From: Fibrobacter sp.
Lineage (GTDB): Bacteria > Fibrobacterota > Fibrobacteria > Fibrobacterales > Fibrobacteraceae
Reading direction: 5' to 3'
Assembly (NCBI GenBank): GCA_017959225.1
Contig: JAGDBD010000045.1
Span: 16,965-80,964, forward strand
DNA: 64,000 bases
In this document: one piece after another, positions 1 through 12,355 of the stretch
How positions within the stretch are numbered: position 1 is the first letter of the stretch
Layout: each line of letters opens with the position of its first letter
Translations under genes and position numbers: made by a program
The notes under the pieces: model-generated
What the model was told of the DNA's origin: nothing
The model's input: the letters and a program-made list of their open reading frames with translations, nothing else
Database searches by the model: none

Positions 1-66
1 GCAACCGCCGAATACGAGCCAACATGTGCCGATAGCTTCTGCAATAGATCTTTGGAGAAGATTCAT
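1..66 (-). CDS. aqpZ: Aquaporin Z / MIP-family channel, 5' end only (runs off the window edge)
   Basis: Reverse strand from 66 reads MNLLQRSIAEAIGTCWLVFGGC, matching the AqpZ N-terminus (AE-x-x-GT-x-WLVFGGC). An AAGGAAGGA RBS lies just upstream. Too short for the ORF track. Confidence 0.85.
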   Translation of the reverse strand, partial: MNLLQRSIAEAIGTCWLVFGGC

Positions 67-109
67 ATTTTCCTTCCTTGTAATTGTAATGGTGATTTGC
101 TTGAAATAT

Positions 110-147
110 AAAAAAGCCCCGCTCCAAAGGAAGGTTTTGGAGCGGGG
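110..147 (-). terminator. Rho-independent terminator after lysA
   Basis: Stem CCCCGCTCCAAA/TTTGGAGCGGGG with an A-run on its left, which is a U-tail on the minus strand. Confidence 0.8.
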
Positions 148-179
148 GAGTGTGATAAGCTTAACAGCGCTTTTCGAAG

Positions 180-1442
180 TTAAAGGTCAACGATTTTTTC
201 GTTTTCCATCAACTGGTCGAAGGTTTGACGTTCGCGAATCACTTCGAGCTTGCCGTTGTTCTGGAGGATTTCCGGAGCAAAACGGCGGCTGTTGTAATTG
301 CTGGACATGGCACTGCCATAGGCGCCTGCGTCGTGCAAAATAAGGTAATCGCCGACTTGAGCAGCCGGAAGCTTACGGGTGACCACGTAGCCGCCTTCTT
401 CCTGCGTAAAGACATCGCCGGATTCGCAGAGAGGTCCTGCGACGATGACGTCTCGTTCCGGGCCAAGTTCTCGACCGTCCTTGGAAACGATGGAGATGCC
501 ATGGTAGGAACCGTAGAAGGACGGGCGGACGAGATCGTTGAAACCTGCGTCAACGAGATAGAAGAGTTTATCTTCTTGCGTTTTCACTGCGCGGATTTCC
601 GAAACGAGAACGGCGCTTTCGGCAGCGATGTAACGACCCGGTTCCACTTCGAGAGCGATATCGTGCCCTACGGACTGGGCAATTGCCTTGCGGGTTTTGT
701 CCCAGAGGCTGTAGTAGGCCTGAATGTCGATGCGGTTGCCTTTGTCTTCTTCCTTGTACGGAATCAGAAGACCGCCACCTGCAGAGATCATGCGGATGTG
801 AGAACCGAGACGGCGGGATGCGTCGCGCATGGCGTCGCAGACGGTTGCCAAATGTTCAAAGTCCGTGCCGCTGCCGATATGCATGTGCAGACCGGTAATC
901 CACATACCGTTTGCCTGGGCGAGCTTCACGCAGTCTTTCAACTGGGAATGCCAAACGCCGTGCTTCGAAAGCGGTCCTCCGGTGTTTGTCTTCTTCGAAT
1001 GTCCATGGCCAAAGCCCGGGTTTACACGAAGAGTCAGGTTGGAACGGACTCCGGCGTCGGCGAGCTGCTTGATCATGTCGGCGGAACCGACGTTGACATG
1101 GATGTTGTGCTTCTTCACCAGTTCAATGGCGTCGCGGTCGAAAATATCGGCAGAGTAGACGATCTGCGGAACCTGTTTATCGCTTTCACCGCCTTTGTAA
1201 CCTGCACGGAGAGCACGAACAATTTCTCCCGCACTGACGGCGTCTACGAGTGCGCCGGCTTTTCGGACGATGGAAATGATAGAGAGGTTGGGGCAAGCTT
1301 TTTGAGCAAAACGAACTGTATCGAAGCACTTGAGTTCCTGAACGCGCTTCTCGATAGTTGATCGGTCATAAAGCCAAAAAGGGGTGCCGTATTTTGCGAC
1401 ACCCTCTCGAATTGTTTCTTCCGTAAAAAGCGGACTAGACAT
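180..1442 (-). CDS. lysA: Diaminopimelate decarboxylase
   Basis: PLP-site FAQKAC, plus HMHIGS, EPGRY, AGPLCESGD and AGAYGSAMSSNYNS. The start is moved from 1502 to ATG 1442 (MSSPLF), which overlaps the upstream stop. Confidence 0.95.
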   Translation of the reverse strand: MSSPLFTEETIREGVAKYGTPFWLYDRSTIEKRVQELKCFDTVRFAQKACPNLSIISIVRKAGALVDAVSAGEIVRALRAGYKGGESDKQVPQIVYSADIFDRDAIELVKKHNIHVNVGSADMIKQLADAGVRSNLTLRVNPGFGHGHSKKTNTGGPLSKHGVWHSQLKDCVKLAQANGMWITGLHMHIGSGTDFEHLATVCDAMRDASRRLGSHIRMISAGGGLLIPYKEEDKGNRIDIQAYYSLWDKTRKAIAQSVGHDIALEVEPGRYIAAESAVLVSEIRAVKTQEDKLFYLVDAGFNDLVRPSFYGSYHGISIVSKDGRELGPERDVIVAGPLCESGDVFTQEEGGYVVTRKLPAAQVGDYLILHDAGAYGSAMSSNYNSRRFAPEILQNNGKLEVIRERQTFDQLMENEKIVDL

Positions 1443-1926
1443 TTTTGACGCTGTTTTCGCCACCCTGACCATCAGGAACTCGGTCCGGGTTAGCCTGGTC
1501 AATTTCCCAGCTTCCGTCGAAGACGAACTTGTACTGGTAAGTACCGGCAGCGAGCTTCAATTTGATGCTCCACACGCCCTGTTCGCCCTTTTTCATTTTG
1601 GCTGGGGTCCAGTTGTTGAATTCGCCTGCGACTTCGACAGAATTGGAATCCGGGGAGTAGACGTTGAAAACGACATCCTTGAGATCCTTCTTCGTTGCCT
1701 TCGGAGAAACTTTCTTTGCAGGAGCCTTGACCGCGGCCTTCTTAGCCGGAGCTGCTTTTTCTTCGGTCTTTGCAGCGACCTTTTTCGGGGCTGCTTTTTT
1801 GGCCGGAGTCTTTGGCGCAGCGGTCTTGGCTGCAGCTGCTTTCGGTGCAGCCTTAGAAGCGACTTTTACGCTTTTTGTCGCCTTGGCTTCCTTCGTAGCT
1901 TTTGTTGTTTTCTTTGGTGTTGACAT
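1435..1926 (-). CDS. Lys/Ala/Pro-rich histone-H1-like N-terminus fused to a CBM48/AMPK-beta-type glycogen-binding (early-set) domain
   Basis: 25 Lys in the first 80 aa, with PAKK/AAPK repeats. C-terminus has VEVAGEFNNW, GVWSIKLKL and GTYQYKFVFDGSW. Confidence 0.85.
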   Translation of the reverse strand: MSTPKKTTKATKEAKATKSVKVASKAAPKAAAAKTAAPKTPAKKAAPKKVAAKTEEKAAPAKKAAVKAPAKKVSPKATKKDLKDVVFNVYSPDSNSVEVAGEFNNWTPAKMKKGEQGVWSIKLKLAAGTYQYKFVFDGSWEIDQANPDRVPDGQGGENSVKNV

Positions 1927-1988
1927 GGATCAACCTCCTTGTTCGTTGTTAACAAATAATAACAAAAAAATAATTTTCACTCAATACC

Positions 1989-1996
1989 TATATTTG
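1989..1996 (+). promoter_or_regulatory. TAnnTTTG-type promoter element upstream of rpe
   Basis: TATATTTG 5 nt before the rpe ATG, with no SD. The same 8-mer recurs at 2671 and 10563. Confidence 0.5.
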
Positions 1997-2001
1997 GAAA
2001 T

Positions 2002-2652
2002 ATGAAACAAGCTCAAATCATTGCTCCGAGCGTCTTGAACGCTGATTTTTTGAATCTCCAATCCGAACTTAATGCGATTAAAAAAGGCGGTGCCGGCCTT
2101 GTCCATCTAGACATTATGGATGGGCATTTTGTGCCGAACATCAGCTTTGGTCCCGGTATTTCGGGACTCATTGGCAAGGCAACGGATCTTCCGTTAGATT
2201 GTCACTTGATGATCGACAATCCTGAACTTTACGTAGACGAATTTGTCAAGATCGGTGCGCATTATGTGACGGTCCAGGCGGAATCCACAATTCATTTGGA
2301 CCGCATTTTGAACCGTATCCGTGAGCTGGGTGCAAAGCCCGCTGTGAGCATCAATCCGGCCACTCCGATCGAAAGCATCAAATGGGTTTTGGATGCAGTC
2401 GATATGGTGCTTGTGATGTCGGTGAATCCGGGATTCGGCGGACAGAGTTTAATCCCTTATTGCCTTGATAAAATCCGTGAATTGCGCAGTATGAAGCCGG
2501 AGCTCGATATTGAAATCGATGGTGGTGTGAAGCTCGACAATATCCTCTCTGCCAAGGAAGCCGGAGCAAACATTTTTGTCGTGGGAAGTGCGATTTTCAA
2601 GACGGATTCGCCTGAAATGACGTGCCGTAAGTTTGTTGAAACTGTTTTCTGA
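2002..2652 (+). CDS. rpe: Ribulose-phosphate 3-epimerase
   Basis: IAPSVL, HLDIMDGHFVPN, DCHLM, MSVNPGFGGQ and IDGGV motifs. Confidence 0.97.
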   Translation: MKQAQIIAPSVLNADFLNLQSELNAIKKGGAGLVHLDIMDGHFVPNISFGPGISGLIGKATDLPLDCHLMIDNPELYVDEFVKIGAHYVTVQAESTIHLDRILNRIRELGAKPAVSINPATPIESIKWVLDAVDMVLVMSVNPGFGGQSLIPYCLDKIRELRSMKPELDIEIDGGVKLDNILSAKEAGANIFVVGSAIFKTDSPEMTCRKFVETVF

Positions 2653-2670
2653 TTTTTTTTTATATTTGGT

Positions 2671-2678
2671 GCAAATTT
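2671..2678 (+). promoter_or_regulatory. TAnnTTTG-type promoter element at the start of the ape cluster
   Basis: TATATTTG in the AT-rich gap 22 nt before the ACP ATG. Confidence 0.5.
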
Positions 2679-2700
2679 TCTTTGGAATGGGTACATATAT

Positions 2701-2976
2701 ATGTCAACACTTAACACACAAATTAAAGAAGTGCTAATCAAGGCGCTTGAACTCGAAGATATCACCCCCGAAGATATCGAGGATGATGCTCCGCTGTTCG
2801 GCCAAAACAAAGAAGGTCGCGGCCTCGGTCTTGATAGTATTGACGCTCTTGAACTTGGAATCGCTATTAAGGACAACTTTGGCGTATCCTTTTCGACGGT
2901 GAACGAAGAAACTCGCAAGCATTTTGCATCGATCGACGCTCTTGCTGCATACATTTCCGCTAACAAAAAGGACTAA
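2701..2976 (+). CDS. Acyl carrier protein 1 (ApeE-like)
   Basis: Acidic 91 aa protein with the LGLDSIDALE phosphopantetheine site; first of two tandem ACPs. Confidence 0.9.
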   Translation: MSTLNTQIKEVLIKALELEDITPEDIEDDAPLFGQNKEGRGLGLDSIDALELGIAIKDNFGVSFSTVNEETRKHFASIDALAAYISANKKD

Positions 2977-2978
2977 CC

Positions 2979-3239
2979 ATGGATAAGCAACAGATCTATA
3001 ACAAAATCCGCGACGCCCTGATTGAAGATTTTGAATTGAAGCCGGAAAAGGTTGTGCCGGAAGCACGTCTTTACGAAGACTTGAACCTGGACAGTATCGA
3101 CGCTGTGGACCTGATCGTAAAACTCAAGTCCTTTATTCCGCGTAATATTGACCCGGAAGTCTTCAAGAGCATGCGTACACTGCAAGATGTGGTGGACGGC
3201 ATTTACGATCTCGCCCAAGGAACTAGCGAAGACAAATGA
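2979..3239 (+). CDS. Acyl carrier protein 2 (ApeF-like)
   Basis: LNLDSIDAVDL motif, 86 aa. Confidence 0.9.
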   Translation: MDKQQIYNKIRDALIEDFELKPEKVVPEARLYEDLNLDSIDAVDLIVKLKSFIPRNIDPEVFKSMRTLQDVVDGIYDLAQGTSEDK

Positions 3240-5545
3240 AAACCGTAGCGGGGAAGATTCTCTTCGCCGTTCTTTCGGTTCTTTATCCGGTTCTGGTTTT
3301 TTGCGGTCTCCATTTTTGGGGACTCTCGCCGCGTAAGTTGAGCCTTTTGCTGCTCCTCCTCGCGGCCTTTCATTTAATATCAGCATCGAGAAAGAAAGTT
3401 TCCGGTACGGCGTCACGCATTAAGGAAGGCTGCTTTGTAGCCTTTCTTTTGGCTTGTGGCGTCGCCGCTTTTGCGCTAGATAATGCGACTGTTCTGAAGT
3501 TTTATCCGGTCCTTGTGAACGTCGGAATGCTTTCTTTTTTTGGAGCGACGCTTTTTCGAAAACCGAGCTTTGTATTTCGGCTGGCGACTTTTGCCGACAA
3601 ACGCATTTTGCTTACCGCCGACCGGTTTTCTGTGGAGCGTTATTGCAACCGGGTCACTCTTGTCTGGTGCATCTTTTTTGTTTTAAATGGGTCTGCTGCA
3701 CTTTGGACCGTGCTTTGGGCAGACGAAAAAATATGGTCGCTTTACAACGGCCTGATTTCGTACATCCTAATGGGGATTCTTTTTATTTCCGAAATTGGGG
3801 TTCGTAAAATGAAACAAAATCAACTGCAATCTTACATTCCATTTTCCAAAATAGAAGCGGATTCGCGTCCGGACGATTCCGTGGTCTGCTTTAGCGGTGC
3901 CGGCCTTTCTTCTGAAGTGAAGACTTGGGCGGATTTCAAGGCGGATGTTTCAAAGGTTCGGGCGGCTGTCGAAGAGCAAAGCTATTCGGCTTGGATCTTG
4001 AACGCTGACGACGTTTACCACTTCCTTGTGGCGATCTTTGCCCTTTTTCAGAGTGGAAAGAAGATTCTTTTTACAGCCAATCGCCAACCGGAATTTATCC
4101 GTGAAATACGAAAACCTGATGTGGGATTTTTGAACGATACCGGTGCGGAAGGCGCTTTACAAATTCCGGAAATCATCCAAACATATTCGGCTCAAAATAC
4201 GTGGACGCCTTTTGATATTTCCAAGGCAAAAGCAGCCATGTACACCTCTGGAACCACAGGCATTCCCAAGGAAATCCCGAAGGATGGCTCTCAGTATGAA
4301 AACGAAGCCAATGCTCTTGCCGAACGTTTTGCCGCTGGATTTGCGAACCGCAATTTTTACATGACGGTGAACCATCACCATATTTACGGGATGGCGTTTT
4401 CCATTTTTGTGCCGATTTCTGCCGGGCTTCCGATTCGCCGTGTGCGTTTTGAATTCCCGGAAGAGTTGGAACAGATTGTAAAAGAACCCGCAGTAATTGT
4501 AGCAAGTCCTGCTTTTTTAAAACGTCTCGCTGCAAACCGCAAAGAACCATTGCCGTTTAAAAAGTCGCCGTTCTGGCTTTCGGCTGGGGGGCTTTTGCCG
4601 GATGACGTGGCGAATCGTGTGGAAGAAATTTCGGGTAACGGCGTTCAAGAAATTTACGGCTGCACAGAAGCTGGAGCTATTGCAACACGCCGCATCCGCG
4701 AAAAGAAATTGTGGACTCCGATTCCGCCGAATAAAGTTTCGTTTGCAGAAAACGGCTGTTTAAAAATCGATTCGTCTTATACAGAAGCCGGTGGATTTGT
4801 CACGGGAGACCTGGGAAAAATCGAATCCGATGGATCCTTTGAATTGCTCGGGCGCGCGGATTCCATTGTGAAGATCGAAGAAAAACGCATTTCTCTTCCG
4901 GAAGTCGAAAATCGTTTGCGTCAAACCGGCGTCGTTCGCGATGTGCGGGTCGTTCCGATGACGGGAAAACGTCAGTTCCTTGCTGCGGCCATTGTTTTGA
5001 ACGATGAAGGCGTTGAAAAATTCCGGAGTGTGGAAAAGAAAGACATCAATGCATTTTTTAAACAGCATCTTTCCGGATTCTTGGAAAATACGGTGCAGCC
5101 CAAAAAATGGCGTTACCTGGAAGAGCTTCCCCAAGATGCCATGGGAAAAATTAAAACACGCGAGGTACAGGCTTTGTTCGAAATCCCCGAATCCCCGAAT
5201 TTTAAAATTCTCAAGTACCACTTGGAAGGCAATTCGCTTTCTGTGAAGACCGTGATCCCGGCTGCAAGCGATTATTACGACGGACACTTCCCGGAATTTA
5301 AACTTTTGCCGGCGGTTGTTCAGATCGATTTGATTCTGCGATTCTTCCGCGGTTTTATGAAGCTTTCTTCCACTCTTGAAAGAATGCAACGGGTGAAATT
5401 TTCTAGTCCGATTTTCCCGGAGCATCCGGTGACGATCGAAGAAAACTATTCTCCGGATACAGGAAAGCTTGCATTTAAAATTGTAGCCGAAGACGGTAAA
5501 ATTTGCTCGTCGGGCACGATTGTGTTGAAAAAGGAAAACGTGTAA
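3236..5545 (+). CDS. Fusion of a membrane protein (ApeG/COG4648-like), an AMP-dependent acyl-ACP synthetase (ApeH-like) and a hotdog dehydratase (ApeI-like)
   Basis: Hydrophobic N-terminal ~190 aa (LKFYPVLVN, W...FFVLNG, WSLYNGLISY). Ligase motifs YTSGTTGIPK, YGCTE, TGDLG, GRADSIVKIEEKRISL and MGKI. C-terminal YYDGHFPEFKLLPAVVQ. Confidence 0.85.
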   Translation: MKTVAGKILFAVLSVLYPVLVFCGLHFWGLSPRKLSLLLLLLAAFHLISASRKKVSGTASRIKEGCFVAFLLACGVAAFALDNATVLKFYPVLVNVGMLSFFGATLFRKPSFVFRLATFADKRILLTADRFSVERYCNRVTLVWCIFFVLNGSAALWTVLWADEKIWSLYNGLISYILMGILFISEIGVRKMKQNQLQSYIPFSKIEADSRPDDSVVCFSGAGLSSEVKTWADFKADVSKVRAAVEEQSYSAWILNADDVYHFLVAIFALFQSGKKILFTANRQPEFIREIRKPDVGFLNDTGAEGALQIPEIIQTYSAQNTWTPFDISKAKAAMYTSGTTGIPKEIPKDGSQYENEANALAERFAAGFANRNFYMTVNHHHIYGMAFSIFVPISAGLPIRRVRFEFPEELEQIVKEPAVIVASPAFLKRLAANRKEPLPFKKSPFWLSAGGLLPDDVANRVEEISGNGVQEIYGCTEAGAIATRRIREKKLWTPIPPNKVSFAENGCLKIDSSYTEAGGFVTGDLGKIESDGSFELLGRADSIVKIEEKRISLPEVENRLRQTGVVRDVRVVPMTGKRQFLAAAIVLNDEGVEKFRSVEKKDINAFFKQHLSGFLENTVQPKKWRYLEELPQDAMGKIKTREVQALFEIPESPNFKILKYHLEGNSLSVKTVIPAASDYYDGHFPEFKLLPAVVQIDLILRFFRGFMKLSSTLERMQRVKFSSPIFPEHPVTIEENYSPDTGKLAFKIVAEDGKICSSGTIVLKKENV

Positions 5546-6285
5546 TGGATTTTAAACCTTGTGCCATTGTACCGGTGTACCGTCACGAAAATACGGTTCG
5601 TACGGTTGTCCAAAATTTGAACGCCCAGAATTTGCCGGTGATCATTGTGGATGACGGCAATACTCCTGAAGCTTTGCACGTGCTGCAACGCGTTGCACAG
5701 GAAATTCCGAATGTAATGGTTGTTTCTCACAGTGTGAACATGGGAAAGGGCGGAGCCGTTTGCACGGGCTGTAAAGAAGCTTTTAAGGCGGGCTTTACCC
5801 ATGCGCTGCAGATCGATGCGGATGGTCAACACGATCCTTCCATGATTCCGTTTTTGTTAAAAGCGGCTCGGAAGCATCCGGAGTCTTTGATCGGAGGATT
5901 TCCGCAGTACGATGCCAGCGTTCCCAAGGGCCGTGAAATCGGTCGAAAAATCACCAACTTTTGGATTGCCGTGGAAACTCTTTCTAAAGAGATCCCGGAT
6001 GCTATGTGTGGCTTCCGCGTTTACCCACTAAAGTCCACGGTGCCCGTTTTGGATAAAATCGTGACTTTCCGCATGGGATTTGATATTGAAATTTTGGTGC
6101 GCCTTGCCTGGGCGCAAGTCAAAATGCATTTTTATCCGGTGAAGGTGATTTACCCGGAAAATGGAGTTTCGAATTTCCGAATGCTTCACGACAATTTGGA
6201 AATTTCCTGGCTGCATACGCGCCTTTGCTGTGGAATGCTCCTCCGTTTGCCAAAACTTTTATTGCGAAAGAAAAAACATGGCTGA
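5545..6285 (+). CDS. Glycosyltransferase family 2 (N-terminal half of ApeJ)
   Basis: IVPVY, IIVDDGN, NMGKGGA, DADGQH and CGFRVYP. Starts at a TAATG overlap. Confidence 0.88.
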   Translation: MDFKPCAIVPVYRHENTVRTVVQNLNAQNLPVIIVDDGNTPEALHVLQRVAQEIPNVMVVSHSVNMGKGGAVCTGCKEAFKAGFTHALQIDADGQHDPSMIPFLLKAARKHPESLIGGFPQYDASVPKGREIGRKITNFWIAVETLSKEIPDAMCGFRVYPLKSTVPVLDKIVTFRMGFDIEILVRLAWAQVKMHFYPVKVIYPENGVSNFRMLHDNLEISWLHTRLCCGMLLRLPKLLLRKKKHG

Positions 6286-7240
6286 AGAACACTGGTCCCA
6301 AATTGAAGAAGCGTCGAAGGCGGCGTGGGAATTTCGCTTTATGCTGTGGGTGACGATTCACCTGCCGCGTAAACTCGTGGAATGGATCGTGGCCGTCATT
6401 GTGTTCTTTTTTTACTTGGGAGCGGCTCCAGTTCGAAAGCGTTCACGGCTATTTTTAGATCACGTTTCCAAAATGAAAGTCGAAAAGGTGCCGCCTTTTG
6501 CCGTGTATCGTCATATCCTTGCCTTTGCCCTTTCGATGATCGAAAAAATTCGAGGGTGGGCTGGGAAAATGTCCCTTTCGGAACTGGAAACGCAAAATGA
6601 TGATATTGACGAATTGGTGAACCTTCTCGATAGCGGAAAGGGTGCTTTTATCCTTTGTTCGCACTTGGGAAATATCGAAGCCATGCGCTCTTTGACAGGG
6701 TATCACAGGGAACATACCAAACGGGATTTCCAAGTTTTTCCTGTAGTGGATTTTTCGGGAACAAAGCATTTTAACGCACTTCTCCGTGAACTGAATCCGG
6801 AATTGATGACCAATAGTTTTGACGCCAATTCGATCGGTGTCGATACGGCAATCGATATGCGTGAAAAAATCCAGGCGGGAAACCTTGTGGCGATTGCAGG
6901 TGATAGAACTTCTGCTAATTCCTTAGACCGCTTTATTCCGCTGAACTTTTTAGGCGACAGTGCCCAGTTCCCGGAAGGCTCTTTTGCTTTGGCGAATATT
7001 TTAAAAGCGCCTGTCTATTTTATCTTTGCGTTCCGCAAAAAAGATTTAGACATTACGTCGCCCTATGAATTTCATATAATCCGTTCTAAAACGGAACTGG
7101 GCGGAAAACGTTCCGAACAAAAACAGCAAATGGCAAATCTCGCTGCCGAATATGTTGCCCACTTGGAAAAATTCTGCTTGGAACATCCTTACCAGTGGTA
7201 CAACTTTTACGACTTCTGGCAAAAGGGAGAATCGAAATGA
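6278..7240 (+). CDS. LpxL/HtrB-like lipid acyltransferase (C-terminal half of ApeJ)
   Basis: Starts MAEEHWSQIEE; has SHLGNIE, AGDRT and PYQWYNFYDFW. Confidence 0.85.
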   Translation: MAEEHWSQIEEASKAAWEFRFMLWVTIHLPRKLVEWIVAVIVFFFYLGAAPVRKRSRLFLDHVSKMKVEKVPPFAVYRHILAFALSMIEKIRGWAGKMSLSELETQNDDIDELVNLLDSGKGAFILCSHLGNIEAMRSLTGYHREHTKRDFQVFPVVDFSGTKHFNALLRELNPELMTNSFDANSIGVDTAIDMREKIQAGNLVAIAGDRTSANSLDRFIPLNFLGDSAQFPEGSFALANILKAPVYFIFAFRKKDLDITSPYEFHIIRSKTELGGKRSEQKQQMANLAAEYVAHLEKFCLEHPYQWYNFYDFWQKGESK

Positions 7241-7674
7241 CTGGAAAAGTTTTAAAAACCTCTGTGGATATTCAAGTTCAATTCTATGACTTGGACCCCA
7301 TGAATGTTGTTTGGCACGGCAACTATGTGAAGTACATGGAAACGGCCCGTTGCGCCCTGCTTACCAAAATTCAATACGATTACACCGAAATGGTGAAAGC
7401 GGGTTATGCTTGGCCTGTCGTGGAAATGAATCTCAAGTATATCCGCCCGCTTCGTTTTATGCAATGGGTACGTGTGGAAGTGACCCTTGTAGAATATGAA
7501 GTATGCATGAAGCTGAAGTATAGATTTATCGATATTGAAACAGGCAAAGTGGTAACCAAAGCGGAAAGCACGCAGATGGCGGTTAAAATTTCAACTCGGG
7601 AATCCCAGCTGATGACACCGGCGGATTTTGTCGCCAAGGTCGAAGCGGCAATGGCAAAGGAAGAAAATGCTTAA
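7237..7674 (+). CDS. 4-hydroxybenzoyl-CoA-thioesterase-family acyl-CoA thioesterase (ApeK-like)
   Basis: VQFYDLDPMNVVWHGNYVKY. Starts at an ATGA overlap. Confidence 0.9.
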   Translation: MTGKVLKTSVDIQVQFYDLDPMNVVWHGNYVKYMETARCALLTKIQYDYTEMVKAGYAWPVVEMNLKYIRPLRFMQWVRVEVTLVEYEVCMKLKYRFIDIETGKVVTKAESTQMAVKISTRESQLMTPADFVAKVEAAMAKEENA

Positions 7675-8266
7675 AACTCTTTTCACGGTGATTGTTGCTT
7701 GCCAAGCAATGCTTTGGGCAGCGGATGCGGCGATTTGGAAGTCTCCGGCGAATGTGGATTCTCCGGAAGTTCAAAAAGTAATGCAGGTGCTTTCTGCCGC
7801 GGAAACGGTGAGCGGCACCTTTGTTCAAAAGCGGACCGTTGTGAAAATCAAACGGACTTTTGAATCCACGGGCCGTTTTAAAATTTCCCAAAAAGAAGGC
7901 ATCACTTGGGATATGGAAAAGCCTTTTGCGTCTAAACTCGTCATTACGGATTCTAAAATCGTTCAGACGAATGAGGACGGTTCTCAAGTAGAAATGGCGT
8001 CTTCGGAAAATGTCATCTTTAGAGAAATTGCGGCTTCGATGAGAGCGGTTCTCGGTGGAAATCTCGCCGTTTTACAGAATCGTTTTGAACTGTATTTTTT
8101 GAAAACGAAAAACGGTTGGAATGTGGGACTTGTTCCCAAAGAAAAAACGATTCGATCTGCGATCTCTTCCATCGTTCTTGAAGGCGATGGGAATTTGAAA
8201 AAAGTGGAACTTGTCGATGGCGAAGGAAATGTGTTGACTTATGAATTTGAACAATCTGGAAAATAA
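7667..8266 (+). CDS. LolA-like periplasmic carrier (ApeL-like)
   Basis: Signal peptide, then GTFVQKR...STGRF...ITWDMEKPF, and a position between the thioesterase and MMPL genes. Confidence 0.8.
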   Translation: MLKTLFTVIVACQAMLWAADAAIWKSPANVDSPEVQKVMQVLSAAETVSGTFVQKRTVVKIKRTFESTGRFKISQKEGITWDMEKPFASKLVITDSKIVQTNEDGSQVEMASSENVIFREIAASMRAVLGGNLAVLQNRFELYFLKTKNGWNVGLVPKEKTIRSAISSIVLEGDGNLKKVELVDGEGNVLTYEFEQSGK

Positions 8267-10553
8267 AAAACGCTATTTGAATATTGGCATTTGGGCGTTG
8301 CTGCATATCGCTCTGATTGTTGCAGTGGTCCTTTCGTATCCATGGAAGATCGATCGCAATTTGTATTCTATCGTTCCGGAATCCGAAACCTCTCCGGAAA
8401 TCCATACAGCGGAAACGGTCCTTGCGGCTCGGACATCTTCCCGCATAATGCTGTTTGTGGGAGATTCGGATTTTACAGTGGCAAAAACCGCTGCCGAAAA
8501 AATCGGGCATACGCTTTTAAGCAGTAAGCAAATCGAATCCGCATCTTGGACTGTGGATCCGTCTTCGATGAAGGAAATTTCAGATTACCTGTTTGCGGAA
8601 CGCTTTGCTCTTCAAGATCCTTCTATTTTGCAAATGGACGATTCTGCTGCCGCGGATTATTTCTATAGCAAAGCGCTTTCCCGCATTTATGGAGCTTTCC
8701 CCACGAGCGACCTTTCCCGTTTGGAAGAAGACCCTTATTTGCTTTCGCAAAATGCACAAGACAGAGTGCTCTTGGGCTCTCCTCTGACGATGAGCCAAAT
8801 GACTCTGCGCGATGACTATTTGGTTGTGGAAGATTCCGGCAGAACCTACGTCTTTATTCAGGCAAAAATTTCGATGGAAACGTCGGCATTTGCTTCGGAA
8901 GATCATATTTTGGGAGTTTTGGAAGATAAAATCGAAGCTTTGCAAAAGGAATATCCGGGTTTGCGGATAGAAAAATCGGGAGTTCCTTTCCACAGCTATT
9001 CGAGCTCAGAACAGGCTCAAGTAGAAGTTGCTTGGATTTCTGGAATTTCTACCGTTGCGGTTTTGCTATTACTCTTGTTGGTGTTCCGTTCGGCGCTTCC
9101 GATTGTGACGACTCTTGCGTCGATTGGTGTTGCAATTCTTGCGGCTATCGGGGCAACACTTGCAACCTTCCATGAAATTCACATCTTTACGTTTATCTTT
9201 GGAACGAGCGTTATCGGTGTAAGTATTGACTATGCGCTGCATCATTTTGCAGATAGGGAAGCTCAGGTGAAGAGCATGCTCTTAGGCTTTATGACGACGG
9301 AACTCAGTTACATTGCGCTTGTAATTGTGGACTTCCCGATTCTCCGTCAGATGGCGTTCTTTTCTATGGTGGGGCTTGCCAGTGCGCTTCTTTCGGTGCT
9401 GCTTGTGTTCCCATTTGTGTCGGAGAAGATGGAAGGACAGGGAAATTTCCCACTGAAGATTGCACAACTCGCTTTGACGGGGTATTCGAAGCTTGAACGG
9501 ATTCCGAAAGTGGCCCGCTATATTATTTTCGTTGTAGCGGCTGCTGCTCTGATCCCCGGTTTTGTAAAGCTCAGCGTTCAAACGGACATTCGTTCCATGT
9601 ACACGGTCGCTCCAGAGCTCGGCGCTTCGGAAATGAAAGTTTCGCAGTGGATGAACATGGGGATCGCTCCCACATACTTTATTGTGAGCGGTGACTCCGA
9701 AGATGACGTTTTGAAAAAAGAAGAAGCTTTAACAGAAAAGCTCCGTGCCGCAGAAAAAGATTCTCTGTTGAAATCTCATCTTGCACTGTCGGACATTTTG
9801 CCTTCAAAAGATAGGCGCTCCCGTTTGAACGAATTGCTTTCCAAGTCTTTGCCCATCAAGTACAAGGAACTTTGCAAGCAACTGAAAATGAAACCGGTAA
9901 AAAATGCTCAGAAAAAGCTTTTGACTGCCGATGAATCGGAATTGAACTCGGGCCTTGAATCATTGCCGGGACAGCTTCAAAGCATGCGTGAAATGCTCTG
10001 GATTGGAAACGTTTCTGGAAAGTATTACAGCGCAGTCCTTCCGCAGCATGTGTCCAAAGATTTTAACCCGAAGCAGTATGCGGATCCGGAAAATGGAGTT
10101 TATGCAGTCAATAAAATCGATGAAGTGAACGGCGCTTTGACGGAACTTTCTTTGACTGCGCTTTCGCTGGTAGCTTTCGCCTATTTTGCGGTGTTCTTCA
10201 TTCTTTCTTTTGTTTATACGTGGCGAGATTCCTTGCGTGTGGTGCGCGCTCCGGTGCTCGCTTGCGTCTTTACGCTTTCTATGTTCGGCTACATGGAAAT
10301 ACCGGTTAATTTCTTTGCAATCACCGGTCTAATCCTCGTGTTGGGCATTGGAATTGATTATGCGCTTTTCTTTAAGGACTCTAGAAACCATACGGATTCG
10401 ACGGCGTTTGCGGTGATGCTTTCGGCTGCGACGACGCTGATTTCTTTTGGGACGCTTTCGTTTAGCGGATTTGCTCCGGTTTCGGTTTTGGGGCTTTCTG
10501 TGCTGCTTGGAATTTCGGTGTGCTTCTTGCTTTCACCATTTACGCGGGATTAA
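8241..10553 (+). CDS. MMPL/RND-type exporter (ApeM-like)
   Basis: Two TM bundles, each with G(V/I)(S/G)IDYAL(H/F), separated by large soluble loops. Confidence 0.88.
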   Translation: MNLNNLENKKRYLNIGIWALLHIALIVAVVLSYPWKIDRNLYSIVPESETSPEIHTAETVLAARTSSRIMLFVGDSDFTVAKTAAEKIGHTLLSSKQIESASWTVDPSSMKEISDYLFAERFALQDPSILQMDDSAAADYFYSKALSRIYGAFPTSDLSRLEEDPYLLSQNAQDRVLLGSPLTMSQMTLRDDYLVVEDSGRTYVFIQAKISMETSAFASEDHILGVLEDKIEALQKEYPGLRIEKSGVPFHSYSSSEQAQVEVAWISGISTVAVLLLLLLVFRSALPIVTTLASIGVAILAAIGATLATFHEIHIFTFIFGTSVIGVSIDYALHHFADREAQVKSMLLGFMTTELSYIALVIVDFPILRQMAFFSMVGLASALLSVLLVFPFVSEKMEGQGNFPLKIAQLALTGYSKLERIPKVARYIIFVVAAAALIPGFVKLSVQTDIRSMYTVAPELGASEMKVSQWMNMGIAPTYFIVSGDSEDDVLKKEEALTEKLRAAEKDSLLKSHLALSDILPSKDRRSRLNELLSKSLPIKYKELCKQLKMKPVKNAQKKLLTADESELNSGLESLPGQLQSMREMLWIGNVSGKYYSAVLPQHVSKDFNPKQYADPENGVYAVNKIDEVNGALTELSLTALSLVAFAYFAVFFILSFVYTWRDSLRVVRAPVLACVFTLSMFGYMEIPVNFFAITGLILVLGIGIDYALFFKDSRNHTDSTAFAVMLSAATTLISFGTLSFSGFAPVSVLGLSVLLGISVCFLLSPFTRD

Positions 10554-10562
10554 ATCGCTTTT

Positions 10563-10570
10563 TATATTTG
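10563..10570 (+). promoter_or_regulatory. Internal TAnnTTTG-type promoter element
   Basis: TATATTTG in the 24-nt gap between the MMPL and lipoprotein genes. Confidence 0.45.
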
Positions 10571-10577
10571 TACAAAA

Positions 10578-11174
10578 ATGTGGGAATTAAAAATGGATAG
10601 TTTGAGGAAGCTTGCGCCTGTGCTTTTGGCATTTGCGCTGTCTGCTTGTACTTCCCATTCCGTGGTGGCTAAGAATGCGGCAAAGGTCTATTATTCCGAT
10701 TCCCGCTACATTCAGTTGATCGATCCCCAGGAAAGTAAAATCGCTGTGGAAGAAAACCAGCAGATGACAGGAAGCTACGGCGAAAAAAAGTTTTCTGGCG
10801 AATCCTGGATGCTTTTGAACGATACCACTGTGCACATGATGCTTTTTAGCTCTATGGGAAACACCATTGCAGAGCTTGTGTACACAAAGGATTCCCTTGC
10901 GTTTAACAGCAAATGGATGAATGCAGAAAAGATGAAACCCGAATATATCGTTGCGGACATCCAATTCTGCTATTATCCGGCGCAAGTTCTCGAAAAAAAC
11001 TTCCGGGCTGCGGGATTTTCTTTTGTAGAAAATCAGCAAGGTGAAGTTTTACTTCGTACCCTTTCCGACGGGGAAACTTTAATTTTAAAAATGGAAAAGA
11101 ACGGTAACAAAATCTTTTTGGAAAACGTCCTTCGCCATTACAGCTATCAAATCGTATCCGAGAAAAAAGAATGA
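10578..11174 (+). CDS. DUF3261-like lipoprotein (ApeN-like)
   Basis: Lipobox LLAFALSAC (the start may be ATG 10593), YIVADIQFCYYP, and synteny. Confidence 0.7.
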   Translation: MWELKMDSLRKLAPVLLAFALSACTSHSVVAKNAAKVYYSDSRYIQLIDPQESKIAVEENQQMTGSYGEKKFSGESWMLLNDTTVHMMLFSSMGNTIAELVYTKDSLAFNSKWMNAEKMKPEYIVADIQFCYYPAQVLEKNFRAAGFSFVENQQGEVLLRTLSDGETLILKMEKNGNKIFLENVLRHYSYQIVSEKKE

Positions 11175-12355
11175 GCGCTCCTTTGTACATTCATGATTTT
11201 GCACTTTGCTCGGCTCTAGGCTCAGAAAAAAAGAGCATTTGGCAGGCTTTGAAAAATGGAAGTCGTCCGCCGTTTATTCAAAAGACGTTCCGTGCAAAAG
11301 AACGCTACGCGGTTGAAATTCCAGAGGATACTCTGCCGAAGGTTGCAGATCCCTATTACGACAACCATGTGAACCGTCTTTCGGAATTGGTTCTTTCGCA
11401 AATCGAAGATTCTGTGCGCAGTGCAATCGCGGAATATGGTAAGGATCGTATCGGAGTATTTATCGGTTCAAGCGATAACGGTTCGGAAGCGTCACTTGCT
11501 GGGCTTGAATCCTTTCAAAAAACAGGAGCTTACCCGGAAAGTTATGAACTCAAAATGCAACAAGCGGATTTTGCCGCGGAATTTATTGCCAAGCGTTTTG
11601 GTTTGACGGGACCTGTTTTTACGCATTCCTCTGCATGTGCATCCAGTGCAAGCGCTTTTGCTTCTGCTAGAAACTGGCTTGAAGCGGGCTTCTGCGATGC
11701 TGCGATCGTGGGCGGTGTCGATATTGTGACGGAAACGGTGGTGCTTGGTTTTGATTCTTTGGAAGCGGTTTCCCTTGCTCCGACGATTCCTTTTAGCAAA
11801 AATCGGACGGGCCTTACAATCGGAGATGGGGCTGCTTACTTCCTCATTTCCAAAAAGCCGGGTAACGCAAAAATCAAGGTGATTGGAATTGGTGAAAGTG
11901 CCGATGCGGATCATGTGACTGCTCCCCGTGCCGATGGCGAAGGCGCTGTACAAGCCATTGAAAAAGCTTTGAACGATGCTGGAATTTCTGCTGCCGATAT
12001 CGATTATATCAATTTGCACGGAACTGGTACCAAATTGAACGACGCCATGGAAAGCGTTGCCGTGAACCGTGTTTTTGGAAACGGCACCCCGGCAAGTTCC
12101 ACAAAAGGATTGACCGGTCACACCCTTGGTGCTGCCGGTGCATTAGAAGCGGCTTTCTGCTGCTTAACGCTTTCGGAAGACAATGCAGAACACGCACTCC
12201 CTGCGCATTTCTTTGATGGGGAACGGGACCCGTCCCTTCCGCAGATTCGCCTTGTTAATGCCGGAGAAACGTCTGAACGGTTGAACATTTGCATGAGCAA
12301 CTCCTTTGGCTTTGGCGGTTGCAATGTTTCGCTTATCCTTTCGAGGAATGTCTAA
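11171..12355 (+). CDS. Beta-ketoacyl-ACP synthase (ApeO-like)
   Basis: Catalytic SACASS, HGTGT and GHTLGAAG, plus SNSFGFGG. Confidence 0.92.
   Translation: MSAPLYIHDFALCSALGSEKKSIWQALKNGSRPPFIQKTFRAKERYAVEIPEDTLPKVADPYYDNHVNRLSELVLSQIEDSVRSAIAEYGKDRIGVFIGSSDNGSEASLAGLESFQKTGAYPESYELKMQQADFAAEFIAKRFGLTGPVFTHSSACASSASAFASARNWLEAGFCDAAIVGGVDIVTETVVLGFDSLEAVSLAPTIPFSKNRTGLTIGDGAAYFLISKKPGNAKIKVIGIGESADADHVTAPRADGEGAVQAIEKALNDAGISAADIDYINLHGTGTKLNDAMESVAVNRVFGNGTPASSTKGLTGHTLGAAGALEAAFCCLTLSEDNAEHALPAHFFDGERDPSLPQIRLVNAGETSERLNICMSNSFGFGGCNVSLILSRNV

Follow-up and report, generated by a model that had tools for sequence, protein, structure and literature searches.

Introduction

Is there a bacterial protein that ties glycogen to the nucleoid, as is known for other storage polymers? 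This question is raised by a small gene in a 64,000-nucleotide stretch of DNA from Fibrobacter sp. (GenBank assembly GCA_017959225.1, contig JAGDBD010000045.1, positions 16,965 to 80,964 of the forward strand; the whole stretch is hereafter called the window), which encodes a 163-residue protein consisting of a lysine-rich N-terminal tail followed by a predicted glycogen-binding domain of the CBM48 family. An earlier note, made from the sequence alone, suggested that this protein could be a glycogen counterpart of the granule-tethering protein PhaF. We have followed up this suggestion by computational analysis, and propose, at a probability of roughly 45%, that the protein acts as a two-headed adaptor, in which the CBM48 would coat glycogen while the tail would bind the nucleoid or another polyanion, so that the stores would be kept dispersed and inherited.

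Glycogen is the most widespread bacterial reserve and no nucleoid tether has been described for it. Granules of polyhydroxybutyrate (PHB) are tethered to the nucleoid by PhaF and PhaM, and those of polyphosphate by AlgP, in each case via histone-like tails as the earlier note had stated for PhaF and PhaM; loss of these proteins or of their tails causes the granules to clump or fuse (PMC13052382, PMC9239181). The nucleoid tethers known to date serve PHB granules (PhaF, PhaM and PhaH), polyphosphate granules (AlgP) and carboxysomes (McdAB), and a 2025 review of bacterial organelle positioning, which covers PHB, polyphosphate, carboxysomes and magnetosomes, never mentions glycogen (PMC13052382). 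The abundance of glycogen in Fibrobacter, on which the note also relied, is documented for F. succinogenes, where glycogen makes up to 70% of the dry weight and is continuously turned over, with simultaneous synthesis and degradation (PMC10308913). In Escherichia coli, untethered glycogen forms phase-separated condensates at the old pole, with displacement of the nucleoid and asymmetric division as the consequences (PMC11042326). The note had stated that it knew of no glycogen-positioning system, and we likewise found no literature on such positioning in bacteria or on this protein; CBM48 proteins of Fibrobacter appear only in lists of carbohydrate-active enzymes.

The gene and its product

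The gene, its two coding segments and the signals upstream of it are as follows.

1435..1926, minus strand: gene for the 163-residue protein with basic tail and CBM48; ATG start, TAG stop at 1435-1437 (open reading frame (ORF) list and translation).
1687..1926, minus strand, codons 1-80: Lys/Ala/Pro-rich tail, predicted to be disordered (composition, AlphaFold2 (AF2) model, conserved composition).
1438..1686, minus strand, codons 81-163: CBM48 of the AMPK-beta type, a predicted glycogen-binding domain (Pfam PF16561 and PF02922, AF2, Foldseek).
1934..1940, minus strand: ribosome-binding site AAGGAGG, 7 nt upstream of the ATG (read from the sequence; conserved in 8 of 9 aligned relatives).
1956..1984, minus strand: promoter-like TTGAGT-17-TATTAT with extended TG, of presumed function (consensus scan; conserved in 8 of 9 aligned relatives).

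Three observations indicate that this ORF is more than a chance reading frame. Its Lys/Ala/Pro-rich stretch of 40 residues is unique within the window when all six frames are considered, the frame is kept in hundreds of homologs, and a promoter-like site and a ribosome-binding site lie upstream. Two overlapping plus-strand ORFs (1384..1923 and 1664..2005) are without support as genes.

The protein has no hydrophobic stretch: the Kyte-Doolittle mean peaks at 0.30 in the tail (10-residue spans) and at 0.48 in the protein as a whole (19-residue spans). Hence neither a Sec/Tat signal peptide nor a membrane anchor is supported, and the protein is cytoplasmic as judged by its sequence, which makes intracellular glycogen the relevant polysaccharide. 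No catalytic family of Pfam or NCBIfam was matched; the NCBIfam matches are confined to the CBM48 region at the N-terminus of branching enzymes and fall far short of the whole-protein cut-offs, and we therefore conclude that there is no catalytic domain. Searches of Pfam and NCBIfam also revealed no ASC domain or coiled coil beside the CBM48, and the AF2 model shows no helices outside it. The description given in the earlier note, of a non-secreted and non-catalytic protein of 163 residues with an 80-residue basic tail containing 25 lysines and PAKK/AAPK motifs, was exact.

The CBM48 domain

The C-terminal half (residues 81-163) is acidic, with a pI of 4.7. Two Pfam models match residues 80-155 well above their gathering cut-offs: AMPK1_CBM (PF16561) at 50.6 bits against 26.8 and CBM_48 (PF02922) at 44.2 bits against 22.4. 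In the AF2 model, built from a 43-sequence alignment, residues 81-163 form a beta-sandwich with a predicted local distance difference test score (pLDDT) above 90. The top Foldseek matches of this model were the glycogen-binding domain of AMPK beta1 (1z0m/1z0n; template modelling (TM) score 0.88-0.89, root-mean-square deviation 1.6 Å, 31% identity), followed by the starch phosphatase SEX4 (3nme). By sequence, the matches in the PDB comprised a feruloyl esterase CBM48 (6rzn, the best), the glycogen-binding domains of AMPK beta1 and beta2, and SEX4.

The residues that would contact the sugar are retained. In the HMMER alignment to 1z0n, W106, K133 and W140 align with W100, K126 and W133 of AMPK beta1; the three are at least 90% conserved among 43 family members, in which N158, by its position the likely equivalent of AMPK N150, is invariant. 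The AMPK beta1 residues W100, K126, W133 and N150 are those which we take to be the sugar contacts in the cyclodextrin complex. From its sequence and its model, the C-terminal domain is a genuine CBM48 of the AMPK-beta type, as the earlier note had recognized, and is predicted to bind glycogen.

The lysine-rich tail

In the tail (residues 1-80), Lys and Ala occupy 25 positions each, Thr 9, Pro 8 and Glu just 3, with Lys, Ala and Pro together accounting for 58 of the 80; its net charge is +22 and its pI 10.7. The motif PAKK occurs three times, AAPK three times and TPKK once; KPAA and AAKP are absent from the tail in the window, which also has no tandem repeat at the DNA level. In the same AF2 model the tail has pLDDT values of 49-57 and no secondary structure, and disorder was predicted by AF2 in two lineages.

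The tail alone gave no significant Pfam match. It was not matched by HC2 (PF07382), for which the best of four tails from the family scored 13.7 bits against a cut-off of 40, and two family members carry a precomputed HC2 match. Since it has neither a tandem repeat nor a Pfam family, homology of the tail to H1, HC2, PhaF or AlgP was rejected, and we regard it as H1-like by composition only.

Across the homologs listed in the search described below, the tail averages 64 residues and ranges from 11 to 109, with a fraction of Lys plus Arg of 0.30 +/- 0.04, a mean net charge of +17 and on average 1.6 acidic residues. Both its sequence and its length drift (23-138 residues across 72 species loci) while the composition stays near 30% Lys, a pattern typical of a disordered region selected for charge. 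Homologs from several lineages (P0014, P0072 and P0093) have paired cysteines inside the basic tail (KCAKCAPK...SKCAK, SACKCAAK and KKCAKKCATKKCAAKK), for which metal binding, redox sensing or cross-linking are possible roles; the copy in the window has none.

Distribution of the family

A homolog search of 5.8 billion proteins returned 724 relatives at E<=1e-3, and the figures given here are from the 120 listed. All 120 are small (94-194 residues), and 119 combine the CBM48 with a basic N-terminal tail of 20 residues or more; the lone tail-less exception, P0050 (94 residues), resembles a truncated gene call. A second scan, using one genome per GTDB species, returned 75 loci, among which 72 have the architecture of tail plus CBM48. 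The earlier note had named absence of the tail from most orthologs as a finding that would speak against its proposal, and this is not the case in either set. The other three loci, from Flavobacteriales, Crocinitomicaceae and Anaerolineales, are not members of the family, being large secreted multi-domain proteins without a basic tail.

Seventy of the 72 loci are labelled Fibrobacter, Fibrobacteraceae, Fibrobacterales, Fibrobacteria or Fibrobacterota. The remaining two are labelled as a Methanomethylophilaceae archaeon (L011) and an Eggerthellaceae bacterium (L013), and both show the typical Fibrobacteraceae gene order, in which the CBM48 gene lies between the divergent rpe and the downstream lysA, and a domain identity of 73-92% to the protein in the window; they are probably mis-binned contigs in those metagenome-assembled genomes. 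When a profile was built from the deepest members and used for another search, it too retrieved only small proteins of tail plus CBM48; such taxon names as these carry are all from Fibrobacterota, Fibromonadales included. The protein is thus phylum-wide in Fibrobacterota.

The domain itself is very common, as a CBM48-only profile matched 22,965 representatives at E<=1e-3 in a set of 1.84 billion representative proteins. The 150 matches listed are all of 302-7402 residues, most with several matched stretches, and are uninformative on whether tail plus CBM48 occurs outside Fibrobacterota. One subgroup (P0086, P0093 and P0109; L084 6001-6366) consists of proteins of 114-121 residues with a basic tail of about 30 residues and the CBM48, encoded between a DivIC-like gene and small ORFs adjoining nrdD; given this subgroup, the architecture may extend beyond the lineages named. 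In the databases, family members are called 'glycogen-binding domain-containing protein' or, wrongly, 'branching enzyme'.

A putative glycogen-to-nucleoid adaptor

An adaptor is the most economical reading of the CBM48, the cationic tail, the precedent of PhaF, PhaM and AlgP, the large glycogen load and the condensates seen in E. coli. The conservation of charge in the tail and the high transcript level of the ortholog in F. succinogenes S85 speak for it too. The CBM48 would dock on alpha-glucan chains at the surface of the glycogen particle, while the disordered polycationic tail would stick to a polyanion without sequence specificity, most probably to nucleoid DNA. With many copies on each particle, the attachment of glycogen to the nucleoid would be multivalent and reversible; it would keep the glycogen dispersed along the chromosome, prevent it from merging into polar condensates and pass it on to both daughter cells. 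The protein would in this way do for glycogen what PhaF and PhaM do for PHB and what AlgP does for polyphosphate. From this set of observations we infer that it binds glycogen in vivo, that its tail has DNA as the partner and that it serves in positioning or partitioning.

The comparison with PhaF and PhaM is close in plan. Both are bipartite and non-enzymatic, and combine a polymer-binding part with a Lys/Ala/Pro-rich histone-like part that binds DNA non-specifically (PMC13052382). The polymer-binding part is an amphipathic phasin helix in those proteins and a beta-sandwich for alpha-glucan here, hence analogous and not homologous; the tails share no sequence homology either. AlgP resembles it in having a long disordered Lys/Ala/Pro tail with a large positive charge, a length that varies between strains and an association with storage granules (PMC9239181), but carries 25 perfect KPAA tandem repeats where the tail described here is non-repetitive at the DNA level and of the PAKK/AAPK type. 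The other domain of AlgP is helical and its granule is polyphosphate.

Further likenesses concern one half of the protein or the other. The CBM48 modules of AMPK-beta and SEX4/LSF share the fold, the Trp/Lys/Trp/Asn sugar contacts and the non-hydrolytic targeting to glycogen or starch; they work within kinase or phosphatase complexes, whereas the module here is joined to a cationic tail only and is accompanied neither by an ASC domain or kinase partner nor by a phosphatase domain. Plant PTST1-3/FLO6 (coiled coil plus CBM48) and mammalian STBD1 (membrane anchor plus CBM20) are non-catalytic glucan-targeting adaptors and also couple a glucan-binding module to a second, linking module with no enzyme activity. 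In the protein described here, the linking part differs in being a disordered polycation whose presumed partner is a polyanion and not a specific protein or membrane. Chlamydia Hc1/Hc2 and mycobacterial HupB, with its C-terminal PAKKA tail, resemble the tail in Lys/Ala/Pro composition but have no carbohydrate-binding module.

Several points weigh against an adaptor of this kind. Binding by a single molecule is expected to be weak, since there is only one CBM48 and no visible oligomerisation domain, unlike in PhaF; no leucine zipper or other oligomerisation region such as those of PhaF and PhaM can be seen. With a charge of +22, the tail is expected to stick equally to RNA, ribosomes, polyphosphate or acidic membranes, and it may have no specific partner; by sequence it is not homologous to the KPAA-repeat domain of PhaF and AlgP, so that the likeness is one of design and not of descent. 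It is also placed at the N-terminus, whereas the tails of PhaF and PhaM are C-terminal. The gene lies outside the metabolic operon of its polymer, in contrast to phaF, which is part of the pha cluster: no glycogen genes adjoin it in the neighbourhoods of four lineages, and a motif scan, which is a weak test, found no glg-like motifs in the 64-kb window. Copies from the genus Fibrobacter (e.g. P0100, P0105 and P0117) are without 13 residues, IDQANPDRVPDGQ, at the position of the sugar-clamping loop of AMPK (alignment columns about 213-226), and their domain still models as a CBM48 with lower confidence (pLDDT 80-90, TM score about 0.71 to 1z0m).

We hold more tentatively the wider proposition that glycogen particles are coupled to the nucleoid throughout the phylum. 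If so, the commonest carbon store of bacteria would have its first known system for positioning and inheritance. Such a system would account for cells carrying a load of up to 70% of their dry weight without the polar condensates, nucleoid displacement and asymmetric division seen in E. coli, and could feed the state of the reserve back to chromatin.

Genomic context

The neighbouring features of the window are given below.

180..1442, minus strand: lysA (diaminopimelate decarboxylase), downstream of the CBM48 gene (Pfam Orn_Arg_deC_N and Orn_DAP_Arg_deC; synteny conserved).
117..147, minus strand: terminator-like hairpin and T-run after lysA, of presumed function (consensus scan; 12-bp stem, 8 GC pairs).
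2002..2652, plus strand: rpe (ribulose-phosphate 3-epimerase), divergent neighbour and context only (Pfam PF00834, 249 bits; conserved neighbour).

The divergent spacer between the CBM48 gene and rpe is 75 bp long and contains the promoter-like site, and the hairpin at 117..147 is likely to be the end of the transcription unit. The order of rpe, the CBM48 gene and lysA is kept across Fibrobacteraceae and Fibrobacterales; in a deeper lineage, ilvC adjoins the CBM48 gene and there is no lysA nearby. The CBM48 gene and lysA share 8 nt, in which the stop codon of the former and the start codon of the latter lie (1435-1442, minus strand; ATGTCTAG), an overlap also found in Hallerella-like relatives, while the two genes are separated by a 4-nt gap in L007 and by 150-1800 nt in the genus Fibrobacter. 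In one strain of F. succinogenes, a lipoprotein-like ORF of 177 residues with no Pfam match lies between them (L001, 8545-9078). A protein with 20% Lys is in this way encoded directly before the gene for the final enzyme of lysine synthesis. We rejected a riboswitch or leader ahead of lysA, as there was no Rfam match in positions 1-3000 of the window and the Lys codon usage is ordinary.

A second terminator-like hairpin lies within the first 60 nt of lysA (1382-1404, minus strand) and has an 8-bp stem with 6 GC pairs followed by CTTTTTGG. It could explain the approximately sevenfold higher number of reads per kilobase per million mapped reads (RPKM) of the upstream gene relative to lysA in F. 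succinogenes S85; however, it coincides with a conserved peptide motif of LysA and may be a chance match. On the other side, beside rpe, a cluster on the plus strand (2701-12355), with synteny in Hallerella (L003), looks like an aryl-polyene-like cluster for lipid biosynthesis and export. Its genes are those of two acyl-carrier proteins, an AMP-dependent ligase, a GT2 glycosyltransferase, an acyltransferase-like ORF, a LolA-like protein, an MMPL transporter and a ketosynthase.

Expression

The sequencing runs in which the locus was found are DNA gut metagenomes, with no RNA runs among them, and expression was therefore considered in F. succinogenes S85, where the ortholog is Fisuc_1536. It reaches an RPKM of 800 with cellulose and of 1417 with glucose, compared with 111/199 for lysA, 299/605 for rpe and 778/2841 for GroEL on cellulose/glucose (PMC4668043 S1 Table); in this one strain, the transcript is at the level of a chaperonin or a structural protein. 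It was expressed in 14 of 14 chemostat conditions and was highest on glucose (PMC6204037 Table S2).

At the protein level, FSU_2018 (UniProt C9RRE7) was identified from 5 unique peptides, with a coverage of 26.8%, in an envelope-enriched cell fraction (PMC6851124 supplement), which also contained plainly cytoplasmic proteins, e.g. LysA and GroES (PMC6851124). FSU_2018 is very probably Fisuc_1536, as its accession immediately precedes that of LysA (C9RRE8), and the S85 ortholog has thus probably been detected as a protein. A protein with such a Lys-rich tail is under-reported when trypsin is used, as the AlgP study notes for AlgP and PhaF (PMC9239181).

Alternative explanations

The alternative that survives best, although we consider it unlikely, is a phasin-like coat with no role for DNA, in which the tails would form a cationic brush that sets the size or solubility of the particles, stops them from merging, or gates the access of synthase, phosphorylase and debranching enzymes. 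The evidence for the CBM48 applies equally to such a coat; the S85 transcript is high, as it is for phasins, and the variable length and unconserved sequence of the tail are expected of an entropic or electrostatic brush. The simultaneous synthesis and degradation of glycogen in F. succinogenes would also suit it (PMC10308913). Against such a coat, a brush of +22 cannot stay unbound amid the RNA and DNA of the cytoplasm, and all studied Lys/Ala/Pro tails of this kind bind nucleic acid (PMC9239181). The missing linkage to glg genes speaks against a coat as well.

Somewhat less probable again is a histone-like nucleoid protein that is titrated by glycogen, whereby chromatin and gene expression would follow the carbon reserve in parallel to glycogen sensing by AMPK-beta. 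This would accommodate the H1-like composition and predicted disorder of the tail, S85 transcript levels typical of nucleoid proteins, the AMPK-beta subtype of the CBM48, which is the eukaryotic glycogen sensor, and an expression 1.8-fold higher on glucose than on cellulose. The protein, however, has no folded DNA-binding domain, its tail is only 23-30 residues long in some lineages, and there is no sign of a regulatory output; physically, moreover, the model overlaps that of a tether and differs only in which partner is regulated.

The partner of the tail may alternatively be polyphosphate or RNA and ribosomes, in which case the protein would link glycogen with polyphosphate granules or the translation machinery instead of the chromosome. 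AlgP, with a comparable tail, is part of the polyphosphate-granule proteome and is required for the spacing of the granules (PMC9239181), and a tail conserved for charge only does not discriminate between polyanions. We nevertheless think this improbable, as nothing specific indicates polyphosphate or RNA, no ppk or ribosome-related gene is linked, and the tail of AlgP is itself regarded as its DNA-binding part (PMC13052382).

The proximity to lysA suggests a device linked to lysine, in which the Lys-rich ORF, translationally coupled to lysA, would tune the expression of that gene by serving as an extended leader or as a sink for lysine. The conserved overlap in the Hallerella-like clade, the terminator-like hairpin 30 nt downstream and the lysA neighbourhood kept through Fibrobacterales are in its favour. 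It leaves a conserved, folded CBM48 with an intact sugar site unexplained, and the overlap is clade-specific, given the distances in the genus Fibrobacter and the ORF that is sometimes inserted there. Deeper lineages have no lysA nearby, the Lys codon usage is ordinary, there is no riboswitch or known leader, and coupling would lower the translation of lysA when lysine is scarce, which is the wrong direction; we consider such a device very improbable. Equally remote is a secreted or surface-located binder of plant polysaccharide, in spite of the CBM48 modules that serve xylan-active esterases (6rzn being an example from a feruloyl esterase), the fibre-degrading habit of Fibrobacterota and the envelope-enriched fraction containing FSU_2018 (PMC6851124), as the protein has no signal peptide, lipobox, hydrophobic segment or C-terminal sorting domain, is structurally closest to the alpha-glucan binders AMPK-beta and SEX4, and shared that fraction with LysA and GroES.

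Implications

If the adaptor is as proposed, tethering of granules to the nucleoid would be extended to a third polymer through an unrelated binding module, and evolution would have arrived independently, for each of three storage polymers, at the combination of a polymer-binding module with an H1-like tail. In engineered cells, the protein could then be used as a portable tag with which to position glycogen. Should the proposal be wrong, the family would still be an unstudied glycogen-associated one with high transcript levels in F. succinogenes, on which ruminants rely for the digestion of fibre. Its two-part design, kept throughout a phylum in which glycogen can make up most of the cell, offers a concrete and cheap entry point.

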